DNA of 64,000 nt. Origin: Carcharhinus amblyrhynchos. Taxonomy: Eukaryota. The notes beneath the pieces are model-generated. The model saw only the letters and a program-made list of their open reading frames with translations. It was not told the origin of the DNA and did not search any database. A program made the position numbers and the translations under genes. This document shows positions 16,519 through 63,170 of this stretch, one piece after another (the first letter of the stretch is position 1; each line of letters opens with the position of its first letter). The stretch lies in the NCBI GenBank assembly GCA_965287045.1, contig OZ336874.1, positions 61,008,001 to 61,072,000 of the forward strand, written 5' to 3'.

Positions 16519-17192
16519 GGGGAAACCTCAGGTGATGGAGAGCACGCCGGTGGATGTCCCCCTTCAAAATAAGTACTCCTGCCTGAGTACTACTGGGGGG
16601 GGACAGCTCATCTGAGGGAGGCAGCAGCGACCAGGTCTCTGGAGCTGAGCCAGTATGTCAAAAAATTTAAAAAGAGAGCAGAAAGGTAGTACTAATAGGG
16701 GACTCCACAGTGAGGGGGGCGGACAGGCGTTTTTGTGGACGTAGACGTGAGTCGCGGATGGTGGTTTGTCTCCCTGGAGCTGGGATCCGGGATGTCTCTG
16801 GGCGTGTCCCAGACATACTGAAAGGGGAGGGTGAGGAACCGGAGGTTGTAGTGCATATAGGTACTGCTGACGTAGGCAAGAAGAGGGAGGCAGTCGTGAA
16901 AAGGGACTATAGGGAACTGGGTAGGCAGCTGAGGAAGAGGAAAGCGAAGGTAGTAATCTCAGGATTGCTGCCTGTGCCACGAGAGAATGAGGGCAGGAAT
17001 GGAATGAGGTGGAGGCTGAATGCGTGGCTGAGGGACTGGAGCAGGGGGCAGGGATTTTGGTTCCTAGATCATTGGGACCTCTTTAGGGGCAGGTGTGACC
17101 TGTACAGTAAAGATGGGTGGCACTTGAATCCCAGGGGGACTAATATCTTGGTGGGAAGACTGGCTAGGGCTACTGGGGGGACTTTAAACTAG
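16519..17192 (+). pseudogene. CR1 ORF1 (SGNH/GDSL esterase domain), 5'-truncated and disrupted
   Basis: Reads VLIGDSTVRG, CLPGA, VHIGTAD, SGLLP, DGWHLN. An in-frame TAA lies upstream of GDS, and the zinc-finger N-terminus is absent. Confidence 0.85.
17183..17192 (+). promoter_or_regulatory. Candidate -1 frameshift slippery site T_TTA_AAC_TAG
   Basis: X_XXY_YYZ heptamer in the ORF1 frame. Its -1 frame joins the reconstructed ORF2. Confidence 0.6.
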
Positions 17193-17228: not shown

Positions 17229-17329
17229 AGCCATGACAGATCAGCCATGATCTTATTGAATGGCGGGGCAGGCTCGAAGGGCTGGATGGCCTACTCCTGC
17301 TCCTATTTCTTATGTTCTTATGTTCTTAT
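17229..17329 (+). mobile_element. Family-B CR1 3' tail nested in the family-A element, TSD GACTG
   Basis: Matches 38349-38450. GACTG occurs at 17224-17228 and 17330-17334. Confidence 0.9.
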
Positions 17330-20300
17330 GACTGGGACCGAGGAGGTTAGCTCCCAGGTAGGGAAGGACTGCAGGCAGTATGAGAGGGAGGCTAGACAGG
17401 GGGTGAAGAAGGGAAATGCCCAGACTGAGGGGCTGAAGTGTATCTATTTTAACGCCAGGAGTGTAGTAAATAAGGTAGATGAGCTTAGGGCATGGATTGC
17501 TGCTTGGGAATGTGATGTGGTGGCCATTACGGAGACTTGGATGTCTCAGGGACAGGACTGGGTACTTCAGGTGCCAGGATTCAGATGCTTCAGGAAGGAC
17601 AGGGAGGGAGGCAAAAGAGGTGGTGGAGTGGCACTGTTGATCAGGGACAGTGTCATGGCTGCAGAGAAGGAGGATGCCGTGGAGGGACTATCTACAGAGT
17701 CTCTGTGGGTGGAAGTTAGGAACAGCAAAGGGTCGGAAACTTTGCTGGGCGTATTCTATAGGCCGCCCAATAGTGACAGGGAAGTTGAGGTGCAGCTAGG
17801 GAAACAGATTCTAGAGAGATGTAGTAATAACAGAGTTGTCGTGATGGGGGACTTCAATTTCCCAAACATCGATTGGAATATCCCAAGGGTAAGGGGTTTG
17901 GATGGGGAGGAGTTTGTTAGGTGTGTTCAGGAAGGTTTCCTGACACAGTACGTGGATAAGCCTACGAGAGGAGAGGCTGTACTTGACCTGGTACTGGCGA
18001 ATGAACCAGGACAGGTGACGGATCTCTCGGTAGGAGACCATCTTGGGAATGGTGATCATAATTCTATCTCCTTCACAATTGCATTGGAACGAGATAGGAT
18101 CAGGCAGGCTAGGAAGGTGTTTGTCTGGAGTAAGGAGAAATATGAAGACGTCAGGAAGTTAATTGGACAAATAAACTGGAAGGAGGCATTCTTGGGGAAA
18201 AGTACCGAAGGAAGGTGGCGGATATTCAAGGAATGTTTGTCTGGAGCTCTGCACGACAACATTCCGATGAGACAAGGAGGTTTTGGTAGGTCGCGGGAAC
18301 CGTGGTGCACCAAGGCTGTGGTGAACCTAGTCAGGAGGAAAAGGAAGGTGTACAAAAGGTTCAGGGAGCTAGGAGATGTTAAGGATCTTGAGGAGTATAA
18401 GGATTGTAGAAAGGAGCTTAAAAGGGAAATTAGGAGAGCCAGAAGGGGTCATGAGAAGGCCTTGGCGGGTAAGATTAAGGAGAATCCCAAGGCCTTCTAT
18501 AAATATGTGAAAAGTAAAAGGATGAGAAGAGAAGGGATAGGACCTATAAAAGGTGAAGGGGGAAAGGTCTGTGTGGAACCAGAAGAAATGGCAGAGGTGC
18601 TTAATGAGTACTTTGCCTCAGTATTCACGGTGGAAACTGATCTGGGAGATTTTGCTACAGGTTTGCAGCAAATGGAAAAGATTGAGTATGTGGATATTAA
18701 GGAAGAGGATGTGTTAGAACTTTTGAATTCTATCAAGATAGATAAGTCGCCAGGACCAGATGGGATGTACCCCAGGTTACTGTGGGAGGTGAGGGAGGTG
18801 ATTGCAGAGCCCCTGGCGATGATCTTTGCGTCGTCAATGGAGACGGGAGAGGTTCTGGAGGATTGGAGGATTGCGGATGTGGTTCCTATTTTCAAGAAAG
18901 GGAACAGAGATAGCCCGGGAAATTACCGACCGGTAAGTCTGACCTCAGTGGTTGGTAAGCTGATGGAGAGGCTTCTGAGGGACAAGATTTATGAGCATTT
19001 GGAGAGGTTTGGCATGATCAGAAATAGTCAACATGGTTTTGTCAAGGGCAGGTCGTGCCTTACGAGCCTAGTTGAGTTCTTTGAAAATGTGACTGAACAC
19101 GGTGACGAAGGAAGAGCAGTGGACGTGGTTTACATGGACTTCAGCAAGGCGTTTGATAAGGTCCCCCATGCAAGACTTCTAGAGAAGGTGAGAGGGCATG
19201 GGATCCAAGGGGCTTTGGCCTTGTGGATCTAGAACTGGCTTGCCTGCAGAAGGCAGAGAGTGGTTGTGGATGGGTCTTTTTCTGCATGGAGGTCAGTCAC
19301 CAGTGGAGTGCCCCAGGGATCTGTTCTAGGACCCTTGCTGTTTGTCATTTTCATAAATGACCTAGATGAGGAAGTGGTGGGATGGGTTAGTAAGTTCGCC
19401 GATGACACGAAGGTCGGTGGTGTTGTGGATGGTCTGGAAGGATGTCAGAAGTTGCAGCAGGACATAAATAGGATGCAGGACTGGACGGAGAAGTGGCAGA
19501 TAGACTTCAACGCGGATAAATGTGTAGTGGTCCATTTTGGCAGGACCAATGGGATGAACGAGTACACTATCAAGGGCAGGAGTCTTAGCAGTGTTGAAGA
19601 GCAGAAGGATCTTGGGGTTCGGGTCCACAGGACTCTTAAATCGGCCTCGCAGGTGGAGGATGTGGTCAAGAAGGCGTATGGTGTACTGGCCTTCATTAAT
19701 CGAGGGATTGAGTTTAGGAATCGGGAGGTAATGCTGCAACTTTATAAGACCTTTGTCAGGCCTCACTTGGAGTACTGTGCGCAGTTCTGGTCGCCTCACT
19801 ATAGGAAGGACGTAGAAGCTATTGAAAGGGTACAGAGGAGATTTACAAGGATGTTGCCTGGATTGGGAGGTATGCCTTATGAAGATAGGTTGAGGGAGCT
19901 GGGACTCTTCTCCCTGGAGAGACGAAGGTTGAGAGGCGACCTGATAGAGGTTTATAAAATGTTGAGAGGAATAGATAGGGTGGATTCTCAGAGGCTATTT
20001 CCCCGTGTTGAAATGGTCGCTACGAGAGGACACAGATTTAAGGTGCGGGGAGGAAAATACAGAAGTGATGTTAGGGGTAAGTTTTTCACTCAGAGGGTGG
20101 TGAGTGAATGGAATCGGCTGCCGTCAGTGGTGGTGGAGGCGAACTCGCTGGGGTCTTTTAAAAGACTTCTGGATGAGTATATGGGATTTAATGGGATTGG
20201 GGGTTATAGATAGGTCTATGGATTGGTAGGTATTGATGTGATCGGCGCAACTTGTGGGCCGAAGGGCCTGTTTGTGCTGTAGTGTTCTATGTTCTATGTT

Positions 20301-56879: not shown

Positions 56880-58160
56880 GAGAGGGGGTTTCACTGTTCC
56901 CATTTGCCATGAGCAGGAATCCAAATGGCCCATTGAATAAAGCGTTGGGACTAACACGGGATTGCTGCCGGGCATCAAAGCATTTATGATTCATCTGGCC
57001 TGCCCTATTGGCCCCAATCAGATTCCTGACCAGAATGAGAGGGAACCTGATGATTATACAAAAGTGTTAAATTAAATGTCATTAGCAGGCTTGAAGCCTG
57101 ATTCAATGTCATCCATTCACCTGCCTCCCCAGCTGGACTTGCACTATGCAGGCTTTGGTGTTGGTCATGACCAGTGTGAACCTGGACCTGACCTCAATGC
57201 TGTGTTTAAAGAATGTGGCTGAGTGAGGAGCTATAGAGAAGGGAATTCCCCTCCTAGTGAAAGTGATTGACTTCTGTCACTCACAGGTCTTGAAAGGGAC
57301 CTTCTCACACTGCAGCTTCTGAAAGAGAGGAAAGAGAATCCGTCTGCTAAATGCAGTGCTACTGGGATTTGGAAGTCTAAGGGGAAGTTGTCGAGGAGAC
57401 ATGGAGATTAAACTGACCAATCCACTTCAAAGTTTTCAAAGTTGACTGACAGGAATGAATATTTTGATCATGGAGCTGCCAGTAATCATCATGCCAAGAG
57501 TGATCTTCAGATTTATCAGGGCTAGAAGGGATGAAACCCCCATCCCAGGAGAGAGTCAACTCCTTGCTGCTGTCCTGAGCCCATTCAATCCCCAGGACCC
57601 TTTGAAGACCCTTCCTCTGCAGAGCTGGCAGTGGCAGAGGGGCACATGGTCACTGGACATACTTCCTTGGCTGCTTCTTTTGGGGTCCAAAGTGCCCGCC
57701 CAGGGCATCACTGCAGTGGTATCAGTGCCAAGGGACAGTGCAAGGTTGGCACTTCTGGGGGGTTGGGGGGGAGCCTGAAATGGGATGGGAGGATGGGAGG
57801 AGCAGGGTTCAGGTCACAGAATGGTGTGGGGACGTGTATGTCGTTATTTTAGTGTGGGGGAGAATAGCCCTTTTTGGTCAGGGATTGGGCTTTCTGTCCT
57901 GGCCAGTGAGGAAGGTTATCATTTCCATTGTGAGAGGGAGTGGGCTTCCTGGTGAACGTAGAGGTCATGTTAAAAAGGGTGATTAAAACAGGCTCTGATC
58001 TCTGAACAGCCAGACCGTCTGGGGTGTTTCACATTCTTCATATGTTTGAATGGTAAAGATGGGTGAGTCCCACATGACAGGTGCAGTTAGTACCAGCAGG
58101 AAACACTCCTGTTTTCCCACTGTCGTGGGCACTTTAGAGCTGATTCAGTGAATCACAGCC
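56880..58160. mobile_element. Probable non-autonomous Harbinger-type insertion
   Basis: Interrupts the old CR1. Imperfect TIRs share ttcactg/cagtgaa, and it is flanked by ATA at 56877-56879 and 58161-58163. Confidence 0.5.
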
Positions 58161-58336
58161 ATAAAGGCAGATTACAAAGAACAAAGAACAAAGAACAACC
58201 CAGCACGGGAAACAGGCCCTTCGGCCCAACGAGCCCGCGCCGCCGCATCGCCCTACACCTATTCTACCCTGCATGTCTACGAATGGGACCCTACTCAGTC
58301 AGATTCAGGGAAGAAATAGTGTCAATTTGGTGGAAA

Positions 58337-58487
58337 CCAATTAGCCTAAGAGCACATCTTTGGGGTGTGGGAGGAAACCGGAGCGCCCGGAGGAAACCCA
58401 CGCAACCACAGGGAGAATGCGCAAACTCCCACAGACACAGGCCCAAATCCATGTATCTGCACAGCTAGCAGTGCTAGTCACTGAGCT
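58337..58487 (-). other. V-SINE central domain and A-box remnant inside the LINE 3' UTR
   Basis: ggaggaaaccggagcgcccggaggaaacccacgca...gagaatgcgcaaactcc matches the SINE bodies at 32985-33050 and 32225-32295. Confidence 0.9.
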
Positions 58488-58697
58488 GTTGTGGAGCCCG
58501 TCTATCGGTCCAGGATCAAGCACACACACCGACATGAAGTACTAGGCCACTCCTGGACTTCCAAGAGCAGCCCACGCACAACCCGCCGTGTGCATGCCCC
58601 TCGCTTGACACGAGGTGGACCTCCACCTGTGGAATAAAGACAAAACATATTAATCATACAGCCTGCCCTTCCGGTGTCTCCCGAGGTTTAACCCTAT

Positions 58698-61586
58698 TTA
58701 ATAGCCCCTACCATATCCCTCCATTCTCGTTTCACTCATGTGCCTATCTAACTGCATCTTAAACGAGTCCAACGTGCCTGCCTCCACCACCCTACTCGGT
58801 AGCGCATTCCAGACCCCCACAACTCTCTGTGTAAAGAACCTTCCTCTTACCTCCAAATTATACCTCCCCCCCCTCACCCTTAAGTGATGACCTCTCGTGT
58901 TCGTACCCAGTCTAGGGAGCAGTCTCTCACTATTAACTCTATCTATTCCCTTCAGTATCTTATATACCTCTATCATGTCCCCTCTCAATCTCCTTCTTTC
59001 CAAGGAGAATAGCCCCAGTCTCTTCAGTCTCTCCTCGTAACCCAGTCCCCCCATGCCAGGCAACATCCTGGTAAACCTCCTCTGCACCCTTTCCAGAGAC
59101 TCCACGTCCTTCCGGTAATAAGGTGACCAGAACTGGACGCAGTACTCCAAATGCGGTCTGACCAACGTTCTGTATAACTGAAGCATTAGACGGCAGCTTT
59201 TATACTCTAAGCCCCTTCCTATAAAGGCTAACATCCCATAAGCCTTCCTAACAACGTTCTCCACTTGTGACACAACCTTCATGGATTTGTGGACCTGCAC
59301 TCCCAGGTCTCTCTGTACGTCTATACTCCTAATCGGCCTACCTTTTATCACATAGCTCCCCTCTGCATTATTCCTTCCAAAATGCATCACCTCGCATTTG
59401 TCAGGATTAAACGCCATCTGCCACCTATCTGCCCACTGCACCAACCTGTCTATATCCTGTTGTATCACCTGACAATCCAGTTCTGTACCCGCCAACCCTG
59501 CCATCTTGGTGTCATCAGCAAACTTGCTGATCACACCACCTACTCCCTCTTCTAAGTCATTTATGTAGACTACAAAGAGGAGAGGTCCCAGTACCGAGCC
59601 CTGCGGCACACCACTGGTCACTGGCCTCCAGCCCGACAAGGTACCCTCCACAACTACCCTCTGTCTCCTATTTCCCAACCAGTTCTCAATCCACCTAGCT
59701 ACCTGGCCTCGTATCCCATGCGCCTTAACCTTTTCTACCAGCCTACCGTGAGGGACTTTGTCAAACGCCTTACTGAAATCCATATAGATGACATCAACGG
59801 CTCTCCCATCGTCAACCGTTTTTGTCACCTCCTCAAAGAATTCCACCAGATTCGTAAGGCAAGACCTCCCTCTAACAAAGCCATGTTGCGTATCCCTAAT
59901 CAGATCGCAACGTTCCAAATGCTCATACATCCTACCCCTAAGTATTTTTTCCATTAACTTCCCTACCACCGACGTCAAACTCACCGGCCTATAATTCCCA
60001 GGGTTATCCCTACTACCTTTTTTGAACAACGGGACCACATTTGCTACCCTCCAGTCTTCTGGGACCTCACCTGTGTCCAAAGAAGAGACAAAGATGTGCG
60101 CCAGAGGCCCAGCAATTTCATCTTTCGCCTCCCTAAGCAGCCTGGGATAAATACCATCAGGCCCCGGAGCTTTATCCGTCCTTACGCTACCTAAAAGCCC
60201 TAGCACTTCCTCTCTCGTAATAACTATATCCTGCAACTGCACCTCCGCTCCCTCCAAGAGACCGCACGATTCCGAACCCCTCTCCTTTGTGAATACCGAC
60301 GCAAAGTATTCATTCAGGAGCTCCCCCATTCCCTCCGACTCAATACACAACTCTCCACTCTTGTCCCTAAGAGGACCAATTTTCCCTCTAACTACTCTCT
60401 TGCCTCTAATATAGGAATAAAATGCCTTAGGATTATCCTTAATCCTACCGGCCAAAGCCATCTCATGCCCTCTCTTCGCCCTTCTAATTCCCCTTTTTAG
60501 CTCCCTCCTACTCTCTCTATATTCCTCCAGCGCACACTCCGTACCCATTTGTTTTGACCTAACATACGCCTCCCTCTTCCTCCTAACCAAGTCTTCAATA
60601 TCCCCTGTAATCCACGGCTCTCTAATCCTACCTTTCCCATCCTTTCGCTTAACCGGAACAAACCTCCCCTGCAACCATTTCATTTTGTCCCTAAAAGCCT
60701 CCCACTTGCCAACCGTGGACTTGCCAGCTAACATTCCCTCCCAGTCAGTTTGCTGCAGCTCCCTCCTAATCCTGCCATAGCTTGCCTTTCCCCAGTTCAG
60801 CACACTCCCGCTTGGACGGCACTCGTCCCTTTCCATTTTTATCCTAAAGTAGACGGACTTGTGGTCACTGTTTGCCACATGTTCGCCTACCTCTACCTCA
60901 CCCACCTGCCCTGGCTCGTTTCCCAACACTAAATCCAGTATAGCCCCTCCCCTAGTCGGGCAAGTTACATACTGTTCTAGCGACCCTTCCATAACACATT
61001 TCACAAACTCCTCTCCCTTCGTACCCCCAGCTCTAGGCCCCCTCCAATTCACTCCGGGAAAATTAAAATCACCCACTACAACCACTCTATTCTTTCTGCA
61101 CCTGTCCAAAATGCCCCTGCAAATTCCCTCCTCCACTGACTTTGGGCTGTTGGGTGGCCTATAGTACACCCCTAGCAGTGTGATCTCTCCCTTTTTATTC
61201 CTCAACTCCACCCACAACGACTCAATCCCTATCTCTTCCATATCGCCCTCCCTCTGCACTACTGTGATGTTTTCCTTGACTAACAGTGCCACCCCACCAC
61301 CTCTCTTCAACACTCCTCTGTCATACCTAAAACACCTGTACCCAGGAACATTCAGCTGCCAGTCCTGCCCTTCCCGTAACCACGTCTCCGTTACAGCCAC
61401 CACATCCAACTGCCTCACAAACATCAAGGCCCTAAGCTCATCCGTTTTCCCTGCCACACTCCTAGCATTGAAACAGACACAGTTCAACCCACAAACGTCC
61501 CTCGGAACCACCTTCTCCCTTATAATTTTCCTTTCACCTGTCTCTCTCCCAGCCACCTCCCCACCCCCCCTCCCTATTAGTTTAAA
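58698..61586 (-). CDS. CR1 ORF2: APE endonuclease + reverse transcriptase (start mechanism unresolved)
   Basis: Uninterrupted frame with FNARS, VTETW, GDFN, LDLVL, SDH, QHGFVRGRSC, DFSKAFD, GVPQGSVLGP, FADDTK. The frame opens at the slippery site, and the first ATG lies inside the APE domain. Confidence 0.93.
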   Translation of the reverse strand, partial: FKLIGRGGGEVAGRETGERKIIREKVVPRDVCGLNCVCFNARSVAGKTDELRALMFVRQLDVVAVTETWLREGQDWQLNVPGYRCFRYDRGVLKRGGGVALLVKENITVVQREGDMEEIGIESLWVELRNKKGEITLLGVYYRPPNSPKSVEEGICRGILDRCRKNRVVVVGDFNFPGVNWRGPRAGGTKGEEFVKCVMEGSLEQYVTCPTRGGAILDLVLGNEPGQVGEVEVGEHVANSDHKSVYFRIKMERDECRPSGSVLNWGKASYGRIRRELQQTDWEGMLAGKSTVGKWEAFRDKMKWLQGRFVPVKRKDGKGRIREPWITGDIEDLVRRKREAYVRSKQMGTECALEEYRESRRELKRGIRRAKRGHEMALAGRIKDNPKAFYSYIRGKRVVRGKIGPLRDKSGELCIESEGMGELLNEYFASVFTKERGSESCGLLEGAEVQLQDIVITREEVLGLLGSVRTDKAPGPDGIYPRLLREAKDEIAGPLAHIFVSSLDTGEVPEDWRVANVVPLFKKGSRDNPGNYRPVSLTSVVGKLMEKILRGRMYEHLERCDLIRDTQHGFVRGRSCLTNLVEFFEEVTKTVDDGRAVDVIYMDFSKAFDKVPHGRLVEKVKAHGIRGQVARWIENWLGNRRQRVVVEGTLSGWRPVTSGVPQGSVLGPLLFVVYINDLEEGVGGVISKFADDTKMAGLAGTELDCQVIQQDIDRLVQWADRWQMAFNPDKCEVMHFGRNNAEGSYVIKGRPIRSIDVQRDLGVQVHKSMKVVSQVENVVRKAYGMLAFIGRGLEYKSCRLMLQLYRTLVRPHLEYCVQFWSPYYRKDVESLERVQRRFTRMLPGMGGLGYEERLKRLGLFSLERRRLRGDMIEVYKILKGIDRVNSERLLPRLGTNTRGHHLRVRGGRYNLEVRGRFFTQRVVGVWNALPSRVVEAGTLDSFKMQLDRHMSETRMEGYGRGY
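61550..61586 (-). promoter_or_regulatory. Candidate -1 frameshift cassette: T_TTA_AAC_TAA + G-tract
   Basis: Heptamer at 61586-61580, a 5-nt spacer, then GGGAGGGGGGGTGGGGAGGTGG. Confidence 0.65.
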
Positions 61587-62467
61587 TCATTCCTGAACAC
61601 CCCAGCTAACCTCCCTGCTAAGACACTAGTCCCCCTCCCGTTCAAATCCTCCCCACCCCTCCTGTACAGTTGCCCTTCTCTCCTAAACACCTCCCAGTGA
61701 TCTACATAAATAAACCCCTCTCCCCTACACCAGTCCCTCAACCATGCATTCAACTGCATGATCTCGTCATTCTTAGCCCTGCTCGTACTGGGCAGCAACC
61801 CAGACAGTGCCACCCTAGAGGTCCTGCTCTTTAGTTTGGCCCCCAACTCCCTAAATTGCCTACGGACCTCTCCCCTACTCCTCCTTCCTATATCCCCCTC
61901 CCCTACGTGTACTATGACCTCTGCCTGGGTCCCCTCCCCTTTCAAAATTCCCTCTACCCTTTCCATTATATCCTTTACCCCTGCTCCAGGGAGGCAGACC
62001 ACCATCCTGGAGTCGCGCCCTTGCCCACAGAACCTCCTATCAATCCCTCGGACCCTCCCATCCCCTACCACTATCACCTTACCAGCCCCCTTCCGTCCCT
62101 CTAAATCAGTCTCCCCTTCCTTCCTATTTTTCTGTGCCCCTGCCGACGAACCTTGGGGGGCCTCCGGGGAGGCCGGGGGACCCTGACTACTCTTCTTCCT
62201 CTTTCCCCTCCTAACAGTCGTCCATCCTCCCTTCTCTTCAGCCCTTGAGACCTCCTCCTGCTCATGTTTCCCAGCCATTATCTCCTCATTCTCCCTAACT
62301 AGAAACGCATCTTCCAGTCGCCCCTCGAGTTGCCTGACCCGGGCCCTCAATCGCTGCAGTTCTAAACATTTACTGCAGATGTGTACCTTGGGGACCCGTG
62401 ACACCACCAGGAACTCCCACATGTGGCACCGGACGCAACTTACATTCCTCCCTATATTCCCTGCCAT
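61577..62467 (-). CDS. CR1 ORF1: zinc finger (CxxC...CxxC), leucine zipper, SGNH-fold domain, 296 aa
   Basis: ATG in GACATGG context. Reads CVRC...CSKC, LQRLRARVRQLEGRLE, VVGDG, CLPGA, SGLLP. Confidence 0.9.
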   Translation of the reverse strand: MAGNIGRNVSCVRCHMWEFLVVSRVPKVHICSKCLELQRLRARVRQLEGRLEDAFLVRENEEIMAGKHEQEEVSRAEEKGGWTTVRRGKRKKSSQGPPASPEAPQGSSAGAQKNRKEGETDLEGRKGAGKVIVVGDGRVRGIDRRFCGQGRDSRMVVCLPGAGVKDIMERVEGILKGEGTQAEVIVHVGEGDIGRRSRGEVRRQFRELGAKLKSRTSRVALSGLLPSTSRAKNDEIMQLNAWLRDWCRGEGFIYVDHWEVFRREGQLYRRGGEDLNGRGTSVLAGRLAGVFRNDLN

Positions 62468-62583
62468 GTCCCAACCTCCTGTAAGTGCCCAAGGTAGAAA
62501 TCTGTCACTCACCTTCTCTAAGCCTGCACTCGCCTAAGCCCAGCAAGCCAAAGCCCTTCTCACTCAGTTCCCACTCACTCTGC

Positions 62584-62703
62584 TGCCCGCTCTATACTGC
62601 TACCCCTTTTTTATACCCCCCGCTCCCCCTTAACGACTATCCCCTGGCCTAACTTCCGGTACGGAAGTAAACTACACTCTAACAAGCCCCGAGAACCGGA
62701 AGT
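62584..62703 (-). promoter_or_regulatory. Candidate internal Pol II promoter: three ETS-type motifs, TATA box, CA start
   Basis: CGGAAGT-core motifs at 62652-62660, 62661-62668 and 62695-62703. TATAAAAAA at 62615-62607, with a CA dinucleotide 31 nt downstream. Confidence 0.55.
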
Positions 62704-62779
62704 ACAGGAAAAAAGCGGTTTTCACTTTAAATCAGTCACTCACCACAGCCACAGCCACCAGGTTCAATGCTCCGGAGAA

Positions 62780-63170
62780 CAGATTGTAAAACCTCCTTTA
62801 GGCATGGGTAAAGGAAAAGATTAGTAAGGACAAATATGGGTCCATTATATCTGAAAACTGGGGAATTTATAATGGAGAATATAGAAATGGTGGAGAAATA
62901 AAACAATTACTTTGTGTACTTACTTTCTGATTTAGAAAATCTTCCAGAATAAATAGGGAACCAAGCGATTTGTGAAAATGGGGAATTAAAAGAAATACAT
63001 ATTAATAAAGAGGTAGTACTTGAAAAATTAATTGGATTTAAATTTGATAAATCCAGTGGGCTAGATTAGCTACATCTCAGATTGTTGAAGAACGTGAATT
63101 TAGAGATAGTGGTGGGGGGATGCTGACTCAATGGGCTGAATGGTCTCCTTCTGCACTGCAGAGGTTCTAT
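62780..63170 (+). mobile_element. Old CR1 fragment (right part) ending in a CR1 tail
   Basis: Reads KRLVRTNMGPL, NNYFV, VLEKLIGFKFDKSSG. Tail is gggctgaatggtctccttctgcactgcagaggttctatg. Confidence 0.8.

Follow-up and report, generated by a model that had tools for sequence, protein, structure and literature searches.

How do ribosomes reach the endonuclease and reverse transcriptase of a LINE whose second reading frame lies at −1 to the first? The question is raised by a full-length young CR1-type LINE of about 4.6 kb (58175..62781, reverse strand) in the window, i.e., the whole 64,000-nucleotide stretch of DNA analyzed. The limits of the element are the ends common to its copies: among 29 aligned copies with a mean identity of 98.5%, 20 have their 5′ end at 62781, and the 3′ end is a (TTCTTTG)n tail at 58172–58182, found in 8/8 copies, made of short tandem repeats and free of poly(A). 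ORF1 (61577..62467, reverse strand) starts with the ATG at 62467, encodes 296 aa, and ends in Asp–Leu–Asn–stop. Its product carries two CxxC pairs, heptad leucines, and an SGNH-esterase-like domain whose catalytic motifs are degenerate; in this family, neither the GDS serine nor the DxxH motif is retained. The Pfam match (Lipase_GDSL_2, E = 4.5e-6) was under the curated cut-off. The whole of ORF1 could be aligned to named ORF1s of shark, ray, and coelacanth, and it fits the zinc finger, leucine zipper, and SGNH esterase type. The ORF2 frame (58698..61586, reverse strand) comprises a 39-codon ATG-less linker, an APE endonuclease, and a reverse transcriptase, with Pfam matches to Exo_endo_phos (PF03372, E = 3.4e-13) and RVT_1 (PF00078, E = 2.6e-33). 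Pfam detected no protease domain in ORF2. A phmmer search of the PDB with a single APE sequence returned no match, while the profile search matched the L1 endonuclease and aligned the Asn of the NARS motif to residue 14 of the L1 chain. Rfam gave 0 matches at E ≤ 1 for 57000–63000, and viral contigs scanned with P0059, A1, and A3 yielded no relative. All lineages in the APE tree of loci, the phylogeny that was built, are related. The labels CR1 and L2 are partly our presumption, and they were also taken from the ORF1 type and from labelled consensus sequences that share the junction. By its sequence, the element is classed as a CR1-clade LINE with an esterase ORF1.

A −1 frameshift signal, as defined in passages of PMC7618472 and PMC5009743, consists of an X_XXY_YYZ heptamer and a 3′ stimulator. 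The initial annotation had placed such a signal at the end of ORF1, and the anatomy of the junction bore this out. ORF1 ends GAT TTA AAC TAA TAG, its final 7 coding nucleotides being the slippery heptamer T_TTA_AAC in X_XXY_YYZ phase (61580..61586, reverse strand), assigned from sequence and conservation. The stop TAA TAG (61574..61579, reverse strand) follows directly, and its final G starts a G-tract (61553..61574, reverse strand), the candidate frameshift stimulator. As had been noted, GGG begins 5 nt past the heptamer (GGG A GGGGGGG T GGGG). In the −1 frame, a TGA stands directly upstream of the heptamer, after which the frame remains open for 962 codons (61586–58698) with APE and RT inside. 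The annotation had also held that the first ATG of this frame lies past NARS and that an AUG start would truncate the endonuclease. NARS was found at codon 40, with no Met until codon 55 (61424), and a start at Met55 would lose the strand aligned to L1 endonuclease residues 8–28. A GTG is present at 61556 in the −1 frame region, its position varying among lineages. In-phase heptamers numbered 5 in 1,637 codons of ORF1 bodies, and their occurrence at the junction exceeds chance. Among sequencing runs recorded as RNA, none contained the stretch. The junction is spanned by contigs from 4 runs, for which no indel at the heptamer was listed; they provide single-contig joints only and are uninformative in either direction.

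The survey of heptamer and phase that had been suggested showed the motif kept in phase across copies and among relatives from sharks to crocodilians, or swapped for other slippery heptamers in distant relatives. Anchoring on the esterase motif, independently of the heptamer, gave 111 copies whose 26-codon ORF1 tail is intact. TTTAAAC was present in 105 of them, and the stop across the 111 was TAA (59), TAG (37), or TGA (15). Loci from searches blind to the heptamer residues contained it in 52 of 58 intact copies. Across 16 clusters, on average 45% apart in the ORF1 tail, the base before TTA was T in every case (16/16, T background 20%), the codon to which this T belongs encoding Gly, Ala, Thr, Asp, or Arg. 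The Leu codon at the heptamer was TTA in 15/16 clusters vs. 19% elsewhere, and the Asn codon was AAC in 13/15 vs. 22% elsewhere. Neighboring Leu, Asn, Gly, and Thr codons were free to vary in the same tails. Because the clusters share a common ancestry, these counts do not represent independent events. Genome-scale support consists of the copy samples (111 and 58) and a G-tract-anchored count, in which the pattern YTN AAY TRR before the G-tract had 4,692 genomic matches vs. 54 for the control pattern; all 100 among the matches listed read TTA AAC. Judged by these comparisons, the heptamer is constrained at the RNA level.

Searches of sequence collections gave 50 matches, of which 31 were dropped as chance, truncated, or broken, leaving 19 host-derived contigs in which the end of ORF1 is complete. 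Eight of the 19 had an in-phase heptamer at the −1 junction, in four kinds: T_TTA_AAC (three), G_GGA_AAC (two), A_AAA_AAC (two), and A_AAT_TTT (one). The first three are named among the shiftiest heptamers for mammalian ribosomes in a passage of PMC5009743. The heptamer lay 30–60 nt upstream of the stop in four of these eight contigs, and the −1 frame continued into the endonuclease in six. Ten contigs were in-frame-stop elements, two of them with an in-phase CCCAAAC leading nowhere, and one (L181) had neither a heptamer nor an in-frame stop signal. Of 96 distant ORF1 tails, 67 contained the dipeptide [LGKP]N, compared with 5.8 on average for random windows, and 15 had no slippery-compatible dipeptide. 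An LN ending is seen in named ORF1s of snake, turtle, monitor lizard, and coelacanth. Distant relatives have a GN ending or an internal KN at variable distance, encoded by other heptamers where a DNA sequence could be consulted. In a published consensus library, 17 of 23 matches to ‘tttaaacta’ were at the junction by our own reading, and the junction was seen in published consensus sequences labelled alligator, crocodile, coelacanth, frog, and bowfin. The matches listed from the PMC4316615 supplement were ORF2-internal only.

Since the heptamer is phase-kept or swapped and this element has no usable start, ORF2 is likely produced via −1 slippage. Phase, synonymous conservation, heptamer replacement, the open in-frame linker, and the lack of a conserved start support the frameshift interpretation of the initial annotation. 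We regard it as probable, from these comparisons, that a programmed −1 frameshift yields an ORF1–ORF2 fusion; its predicted length is 1,256 aa, close to the 1,250 aa first estimated. A minority of ribosomes would likely slip back one base at U_UUA_AAC; tRNA-Leu and tRNA-Asn would re-pair on UUU AAA, and reading would resume at CUA. The product would be a Gag-Pol-like fusion of ORF1, linker, endonuclease, and reverse transcriptase. Most ribosomes would terminate at the ORF1 stop, presumably giving a high ORF1p:fusion ratio, and slow termination at the adjacent stop may assist the pause. Tandem slippage retains Leu–Asn, and therefore NDLNLIGR is the main junction peptide expected under the standard model. 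The peptides proposed earlier have to be revised accordingly: NDLKLIGR would arise in minor amounts, and NDFKLIGR should not form.

The strongest alternative, to which we grant a low probability, is termination–reinitiation at a nearby AUG or non-AUG codon in the −1 frame. It would release a free ORF2p, and the motif would then be a termination or reinitiation signal. According to reviews, ORF2 translation in SART1 (UAAUG) and L1 depends on ORF1 translation, through reinitiation or unconventional initiation, and the ORF1 stop of the CR1 element abuts the overlap. Single lineages also offer candidate starts (one TAATG stop–start, one Met at codon 6, and one right at the endonuclease start), and most copies in 5 of the 9 open-linker lineages have a Met before NARS. 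However, these Mets are non-homologous, and no start codon is common to the lineages: codon 4 of the −1 frame is ATA, ATT, ATG, GAA, or GTA, depending on the lineage, and the GTG shifts as well. In the family of the 58175–62781 element, Met before NARS was absent from 26/26 open linkers. Reinitiation leaves unexplained both the XXX swaps (TTT, GGG, and AAA in ORF1 phase) and the heptamers located 30–60 nt before the stop. Linkers differ by ~50% between lineages and are 117–192 nt long. An open −1 linker was found in at least one copy in 9 of 13 clusters, with 1–8 stops in the 0 frame and 2–6 in the +1 frame. In many genomic copies the linker is out of frame, usually because of the G-run (e.g., 13/25 in one cluster), which may reflect decay or homopolymer error. 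A supposed subfamily in which a shared +1 base would bring both ORFs into one frame was considered and rejected. It comprised 4 exact copies only, all inside the initial 3.2 Mb of a single contig, and 3/4 had ORF2 stops. Being few, clustered, and mostly interrupted, they were read as a broken copy duplicated locally.

Protein-level constraint or shared ancestry, whereby ORF1 needs its Leu–Asn end and ORF2 merely happens to lie at −1, is very improbable. In vertebrate CR1, the spacing between the esterase motif and Leu–Asn is indeed constant, and the relatedness of all lineages is consistent with inheritance. Protein constraint is largely refuted by the fixed synonymous sites (T and TTA) amid free neighboring codons, and the distant relatives reach GN or internal KN via other heptamers. 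Joining at the RNA level, by splicing or by polymerase slippage that adds one base to merge the two frames, is just as improbable: the junction G homopolymers are indel-prone among genomic copies, but an indel in the main G-run, which is 3′ of the ORF1 stop, could not link the frames; T3A3 is probably too short for polymerase slippage, and the purine-rich linker has no polypyrimidine tract for splicing.

Within the preferred −1 frameshift explanation, the pause signal is the least certain part. We favor the G-tract at +6 to +20 as a roadblock; it may act as a G-quadruplex here and, in two-run lineages, as a G-run bound by protein or some weaker structure. The tract is conserved at +7..+20, the G fraction being 0.78 there vs. 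0.38 in the remaining linker. The earlier suggestion of a G-quadruplex is plausible for the family of the 58175–62781 element, where a three-tier structure is predicted (G3 × 4, 1-nt loops), but it cannot be generalized: a three-tier motif was present in 4/16 clusters and a two-tier motif in 11/16. G4Hunter scores reached at least the 90th percentile in 13/16 clusters, and the score of the sister copy L001 (2.52) was the top of the scanned region. An RNA G4 behind U3A3C promotes frameshifting up to about 7%, best with a 6–8 nt spacer (PMC3919603). For this family, we place the predicted G-quadruplex as the stimulator slightly below an even chance. A stem-loop stimulator was not supported by z scores, no stem-loop being found downstream (z = 0.16 at the junction of this element, −1.3 to 2.1 over the 16 clusters). 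The same folding scans, which addressed pseudoknots only indirectly, contained no pseudoknot-like signal. Long-range pairing of the G-tract was rejected; the location of the best partner differed in every one of 9 lineages.

Retroviral and coronaviral signals (e.g., U_UUA_AAC of IBV) share with CR1 an in-phase canonical heptamer, a short overlap, and a candidate stimulator 5–6 nt downstream, together with the combination of an abundant structural protein and a rare polymerase fusion, which is predicted in CR1. In contrast to them, CR1 is a non-LTR element, the vertebrate CR1 stop is directly after the heptamer, no protease domain was seen, and no pseudoknot or stem-loop is predicted, a G-tract occupying that position. 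For Dictyostelium TRE5-A and TRE3-A, a figure legend in a review states that ORF2 requires −1 frameshifting (PMC5911963). These are likewise APE-type non-LTR elements, differing from CR1 in host kingdom, ORF1, and tRNA-gene targeting. CR1 subgroup 7 with ORF1 type IVB, as described by Metcalfe and Casane (PMC4120745), has the same ORF1 architecture and an APE-RT ORF2, whereas the esterase of the present family has lost its GDS serine and DxxH. The words ‘frameshift’ and ‘overlap’ are absent from the main text of PMC4120745 and of a 2026 CR1 survey, and a literature search, with the original CR1 papers outside its reach, found no report of CR1 frameshifting. L1 and SART1 are also bicistronic LINE RNAs, with a low ORF2 output tied to ORF1 translation, but they make a separate ORF2p, while the CR1 element lacks both an intergenic gap and a conserved start, having a conserved shift site instead. 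Reviews call LINE ORF2 translation unsettled, the tested cases favoring reinitiation. In engineered frameshift reporters, U3A3C with a G4 5–8 nt downstream works; the CR1 G-tract is natural and conserved in position. The arterivirus nsp1beta/PCBP signal acts via a protein bound to a short unstructured motif 10 nt downstream, and CR1 is only a candidate for such a mode.

CR1-group elements are the dominant retrotransposons in most vertebrates, according to the abstract of PMC13343379. If the frameshift is real, the active enzyme would share its coiled-coil and esterase domain with ORF1p, and frameshift efficiency would determine the proportion in which it enters ORF1 multimers. First-ATG ORF2 annotations would then miss the first endonuclease strand, and the junction would be a candidate for a natural G-quadruplex-stimulated frameshift. 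A wider reading is evenly balanced in our estimate: esterase-type LINEs may all recode for a Gag-Pol-like RT, the CR1 branch through −1 heptamers and the sister L2-like branch through readthrough of a single in-frame UGA-C. That estimate jointly covers the use of a stop-adjacent G-tract or natural G-quadruplex as the stimulator in vertebrate CR1. Should the whole reading be true, recoding would have been kept across jawed vertebrates in a main repeat family. The same junction had been reported near 17183, and T_TTA_AAC TAG is indeed present at 17183..17192 on the forward strand, in a second CR1 family. The heptamer-side linker to NARS is 268 nt in this copy vs. 162 nt in most sister copies, and the 106-nt insertion breaks its −1 frame. 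This second family has an in-frame ATG at codon 6 in 21 of 24 open copies.

The main element is a full-length young CR1-type LINE on the minus strand at about 62781–58175, as delimited by alignment of sister copies. Its start at 62781 was common to 20 of 29 aligned sister copies (mean identity 98.5%), and the 3′ UTR with its (TTCTTTG)n tail was common to 8/8 copies. ORF1, starting with the ATG at 62467 (minus), encodes 296 residues with two CxxC pairs, heptad leucines, and an SGNH-esterase-like domain; its best named relatives in a protein search came from rays and sharks, which points to a cartilaginous fish as the probable host. As the initial annotation had proposed, ORF1 ends with GAT TTA AAC TAA TAG, so that T_TTA_AAC (61586–61580) lies in phase, and the −1 frame opens at this heptamer, running for 962 codons without a stop through APE and RT. 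In the main element's family, the TGA immediately 5′ of the heptamer in the −1 frame means that ORF2 cannot start further upstream. The first Met of the ORF2 frame, at codon 55, indeed follows the endonuclease N-terminal motif NARS (codon 40). When a profile of 23 APE domains was aligned with the L1 endonuclease chain, the NARS Asn fell on residue 14. Asn14 is an active-site residue of that enzyme. Tandem tRNA slippage on the heptamer, one base back, would lead into the ORF2 frame. The predicted product has 296 + 960 = 1,256 residues, and its junction would read NDLN-LIGR instead of the NDLKLIGR or NDFKLIGR initially expected.

Within the genome, an ORF2-anchored pattern matched 13,635 places (control, 2). 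The sample comprised 167 distinct elements anchored on the APE motif; in 134 of these, a profile omitting the last residues allowed the ORF1 esterase motif to serve as an anchor, and 111 elements had an unbroken 26-codon ORF1 tail. TTTAAAC ended 105 of the 111 intact tails, and TTT was present in all 111; the background of in-phase heptamers in ORF1 bodies was 5 per 1,637 codons. A recount avoiding selection, without the copies picked by ORF1-end similarity, gave 52/58 intact tails and 64/79 anchored copies, broken ones included. The base before TTA was T in 16/16 clusters of copies (background 20%), its host codon encoding five different residues. The last Leu was TTA in 15/16 clusters (19% elsewhere; 3/15 and 3/13 at the two conserved leucines close by). 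For the last Asn, the codon was AAC in 13/15 (22% elsewhere). No P value is attached to these counts, since the clusters have a common ancestry and four of them consist of one decayed copy each. When the Leu and Asn codons were left free to vary, the pattern matched 4,692 places (control, 54), and all 100 among the matches listed carried TTA AAC.

The conservation of heptamer and phase extended to relatives, some of which keep the heptamer or swap it in phase. A first search found LN at the C-terminus of 37/59 proteins, including a coelacanth ORF1. A profile search added 140 new proteins, of which 96 with an anchored tail were kept and 44 dropped; snake, snapping turtle, and Komodo dragon were named members ending in LN. 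[LGKP]N occurred from tail position 22 onward in 67/96 tails (2,000 random draws: mean 5.8, maximum 14), and 15 of the 96 had no slippery-compatible pair. A DNA pattern scan gave 50 matches, 19 with a complete esterase ORF1 end. Eight of these 19 host-derived contigs carried an in-phase canonical heptamer at the −1 junction: T_TTA_AAC (L162, L190, L198), G_GGA_AAC (L182, L195), A_AAA_AAC (L183, L197), or A_AAT_TTT (L200). Six continued in the −1 frame into the APE motif, and the other two ended shortly after; in four of the eight, the heptamer lay 30–60 nt upstream of the ORF1 stop. In passages of the PMC13343379 consensus library, 17/23 'tttaaacta' matches were judged to fall at the junction, a share of these matches and not of all library CR1 consensuses. 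We interpret their labels as alligator, crocodile, bowfin, bullfrog, coelacanth, elephant shark, sharks, rays, and one teleost.

PMC5009743 counts T_TTA_AAC, G_GGA_AAC, and A_AAA_AAC among the heptamers on which mammalian ribosomes shift most readily. Since tandem tRNA slippage predicts their exchange in a fixed phase, −1 frameshifting is favored, and it probably joins ORF1 to ORF2. The junction is judged a real, deeply conserved recoding signal, most likely for a −1 frameshift. The linker diverged by about 50% between clusters and varied from 117 to 192 nt, and its −1 frame was open in at least one copy for 9/13 clusters, as against 1–8 and 2–6 stops in the other frames. The four clusters with no open copy were single copies; many copies were one base off frame, mostly at the G-run. 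Reinitiation, by which ORF2 would start anew near the ORF1 stop, draws its main support from the five of nine open lineages in which a Met precedes NARS; examples are a TAATG and a Met located where APE begins. However, these positions are non-homologous, 26/26 open copies of the main element's family have no such Met, and a reinitiation signal does not predict heptamer exchange in a fixed phase. Protein constraint on the ORF1 end, as a cause of the motif conservation, does not predict this exchange either.

No hairpin was predicted downstream of the heptamer in the main element or the 16 clusters, and no long-range pairing partner of the G-tract was common to the lineages compared. The G fraction was 0.78 at +7 to +20 from the heptamer versus 0.38 further downstream in the linker, and Gly codons were GGG in 17/25 cases there (73/165 elsewhere). 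GG at +7/+8 was retained across Trp, Gly, and Arg codons; judged by composition and codon use, the G-tract is conserved in place. The quadruplex noted initially held in part: the tract of the main family fits a predicted three-tier G4 with 1-nt loops, but only 4/16 clusters have such a motif (two-tier, 11/16), and several have two runs only. A G4 is therefore unlikely as a general rule. In the main family, a G4 stimulator is plausible, if tentative; the predicted structure is close to the engineered (G3U)4 design that gave ~7% frameshifting behind U3A3C (PMC3919603). Alternatively, the G-run may be protein-bound, an idea modeled on the arterivirus C-rich motif (PMC7618472), or may reflect the need for a Gly-rich linker; slow termination may also act as the stimulator. 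Raw folding, with no shuffle control, placed a hairpin within a few bases of the heptamer in L183, L190, and L200, and none in L197. In these three, whose heptamer precedes the ORF1 stop, the stimulator may be a classical RNA structure.

The remaining contigs mostly showed another arrangement. TGA followed by C ended ORF1 in 10/19, all metagenome contigs (L165, L167, L168, L169, L173, L176, L179, L184, L192, L194; L2-like esterase LINEs), and one locus had neither this nor a −1 heptamer. UGA-C is a leaky stop context. APE followed in frame in 9/10, six of the nine having no Met before the NxRS motif, and seven of these elements formed a separate clade on the APE tree (100/100, with a long-branch warning). 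Stop-codon readthrough is a candidate route to the same kind of fusion. A literature search found no report on UGA-C readthrough in such LINEs.

Full-text searches of the literature yielded no report of CR1 frameshifting; the texts covered included parts of PMC2734521, PMC2881922, PMC4120745, PMC3905857, PMC3894237, and the PMC4316615 supplement, and the primary CR1/SART1 papers of 1997–2005 may hold an earlier remark. CR1 is not mentioned in the 300,000 characters covered of PMC5009743, nor does the word 'frameshift' occur in the available part of PMC13343379. The nearest precedent is Dictyostelium TRE5-A and TRE3-A, which are stated to require a −1 frameshift (PMC5911963).

The second element (plus strand) carries the junction annotated at 17183 (T_TTA_AAC TAG, 17183–17192), but its linker is broken by a 106-nt insertion at about 17230–17335. 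The insertion resembles a CR1 3′ tail, is accompanied by a short GACTG duplication, and shifts ORF2 to frame 0 behind the ORF1 stop. In four genomic copies (L075, L094, L110, L121), a common one-base insertion places the ORF1 esterase and ORF2 in a single reading frame; all lie within the first 3.2 Mb of one contig, and the join was set aside, since a broken copy was probably duplicated locally. The 3′ UTR of the main family (58175–58697, minus) is unusually long at ~520 nt in 8/8 copies, and part of it may resemble the core of vertebrate V-SINEs. AATCTG occurs at both element ends (62781–62786 and about 58168–58174, minus), a possible 6-bp target-site duplication. The ORF1 esterase (61580–62100, minus) has lost its catalytic motifs, with GDG for GDS and GEDL for DGLH, a loss also seen in some related sequences; it is an apparently dead enzyme domain retained by an expanding young LINE family.
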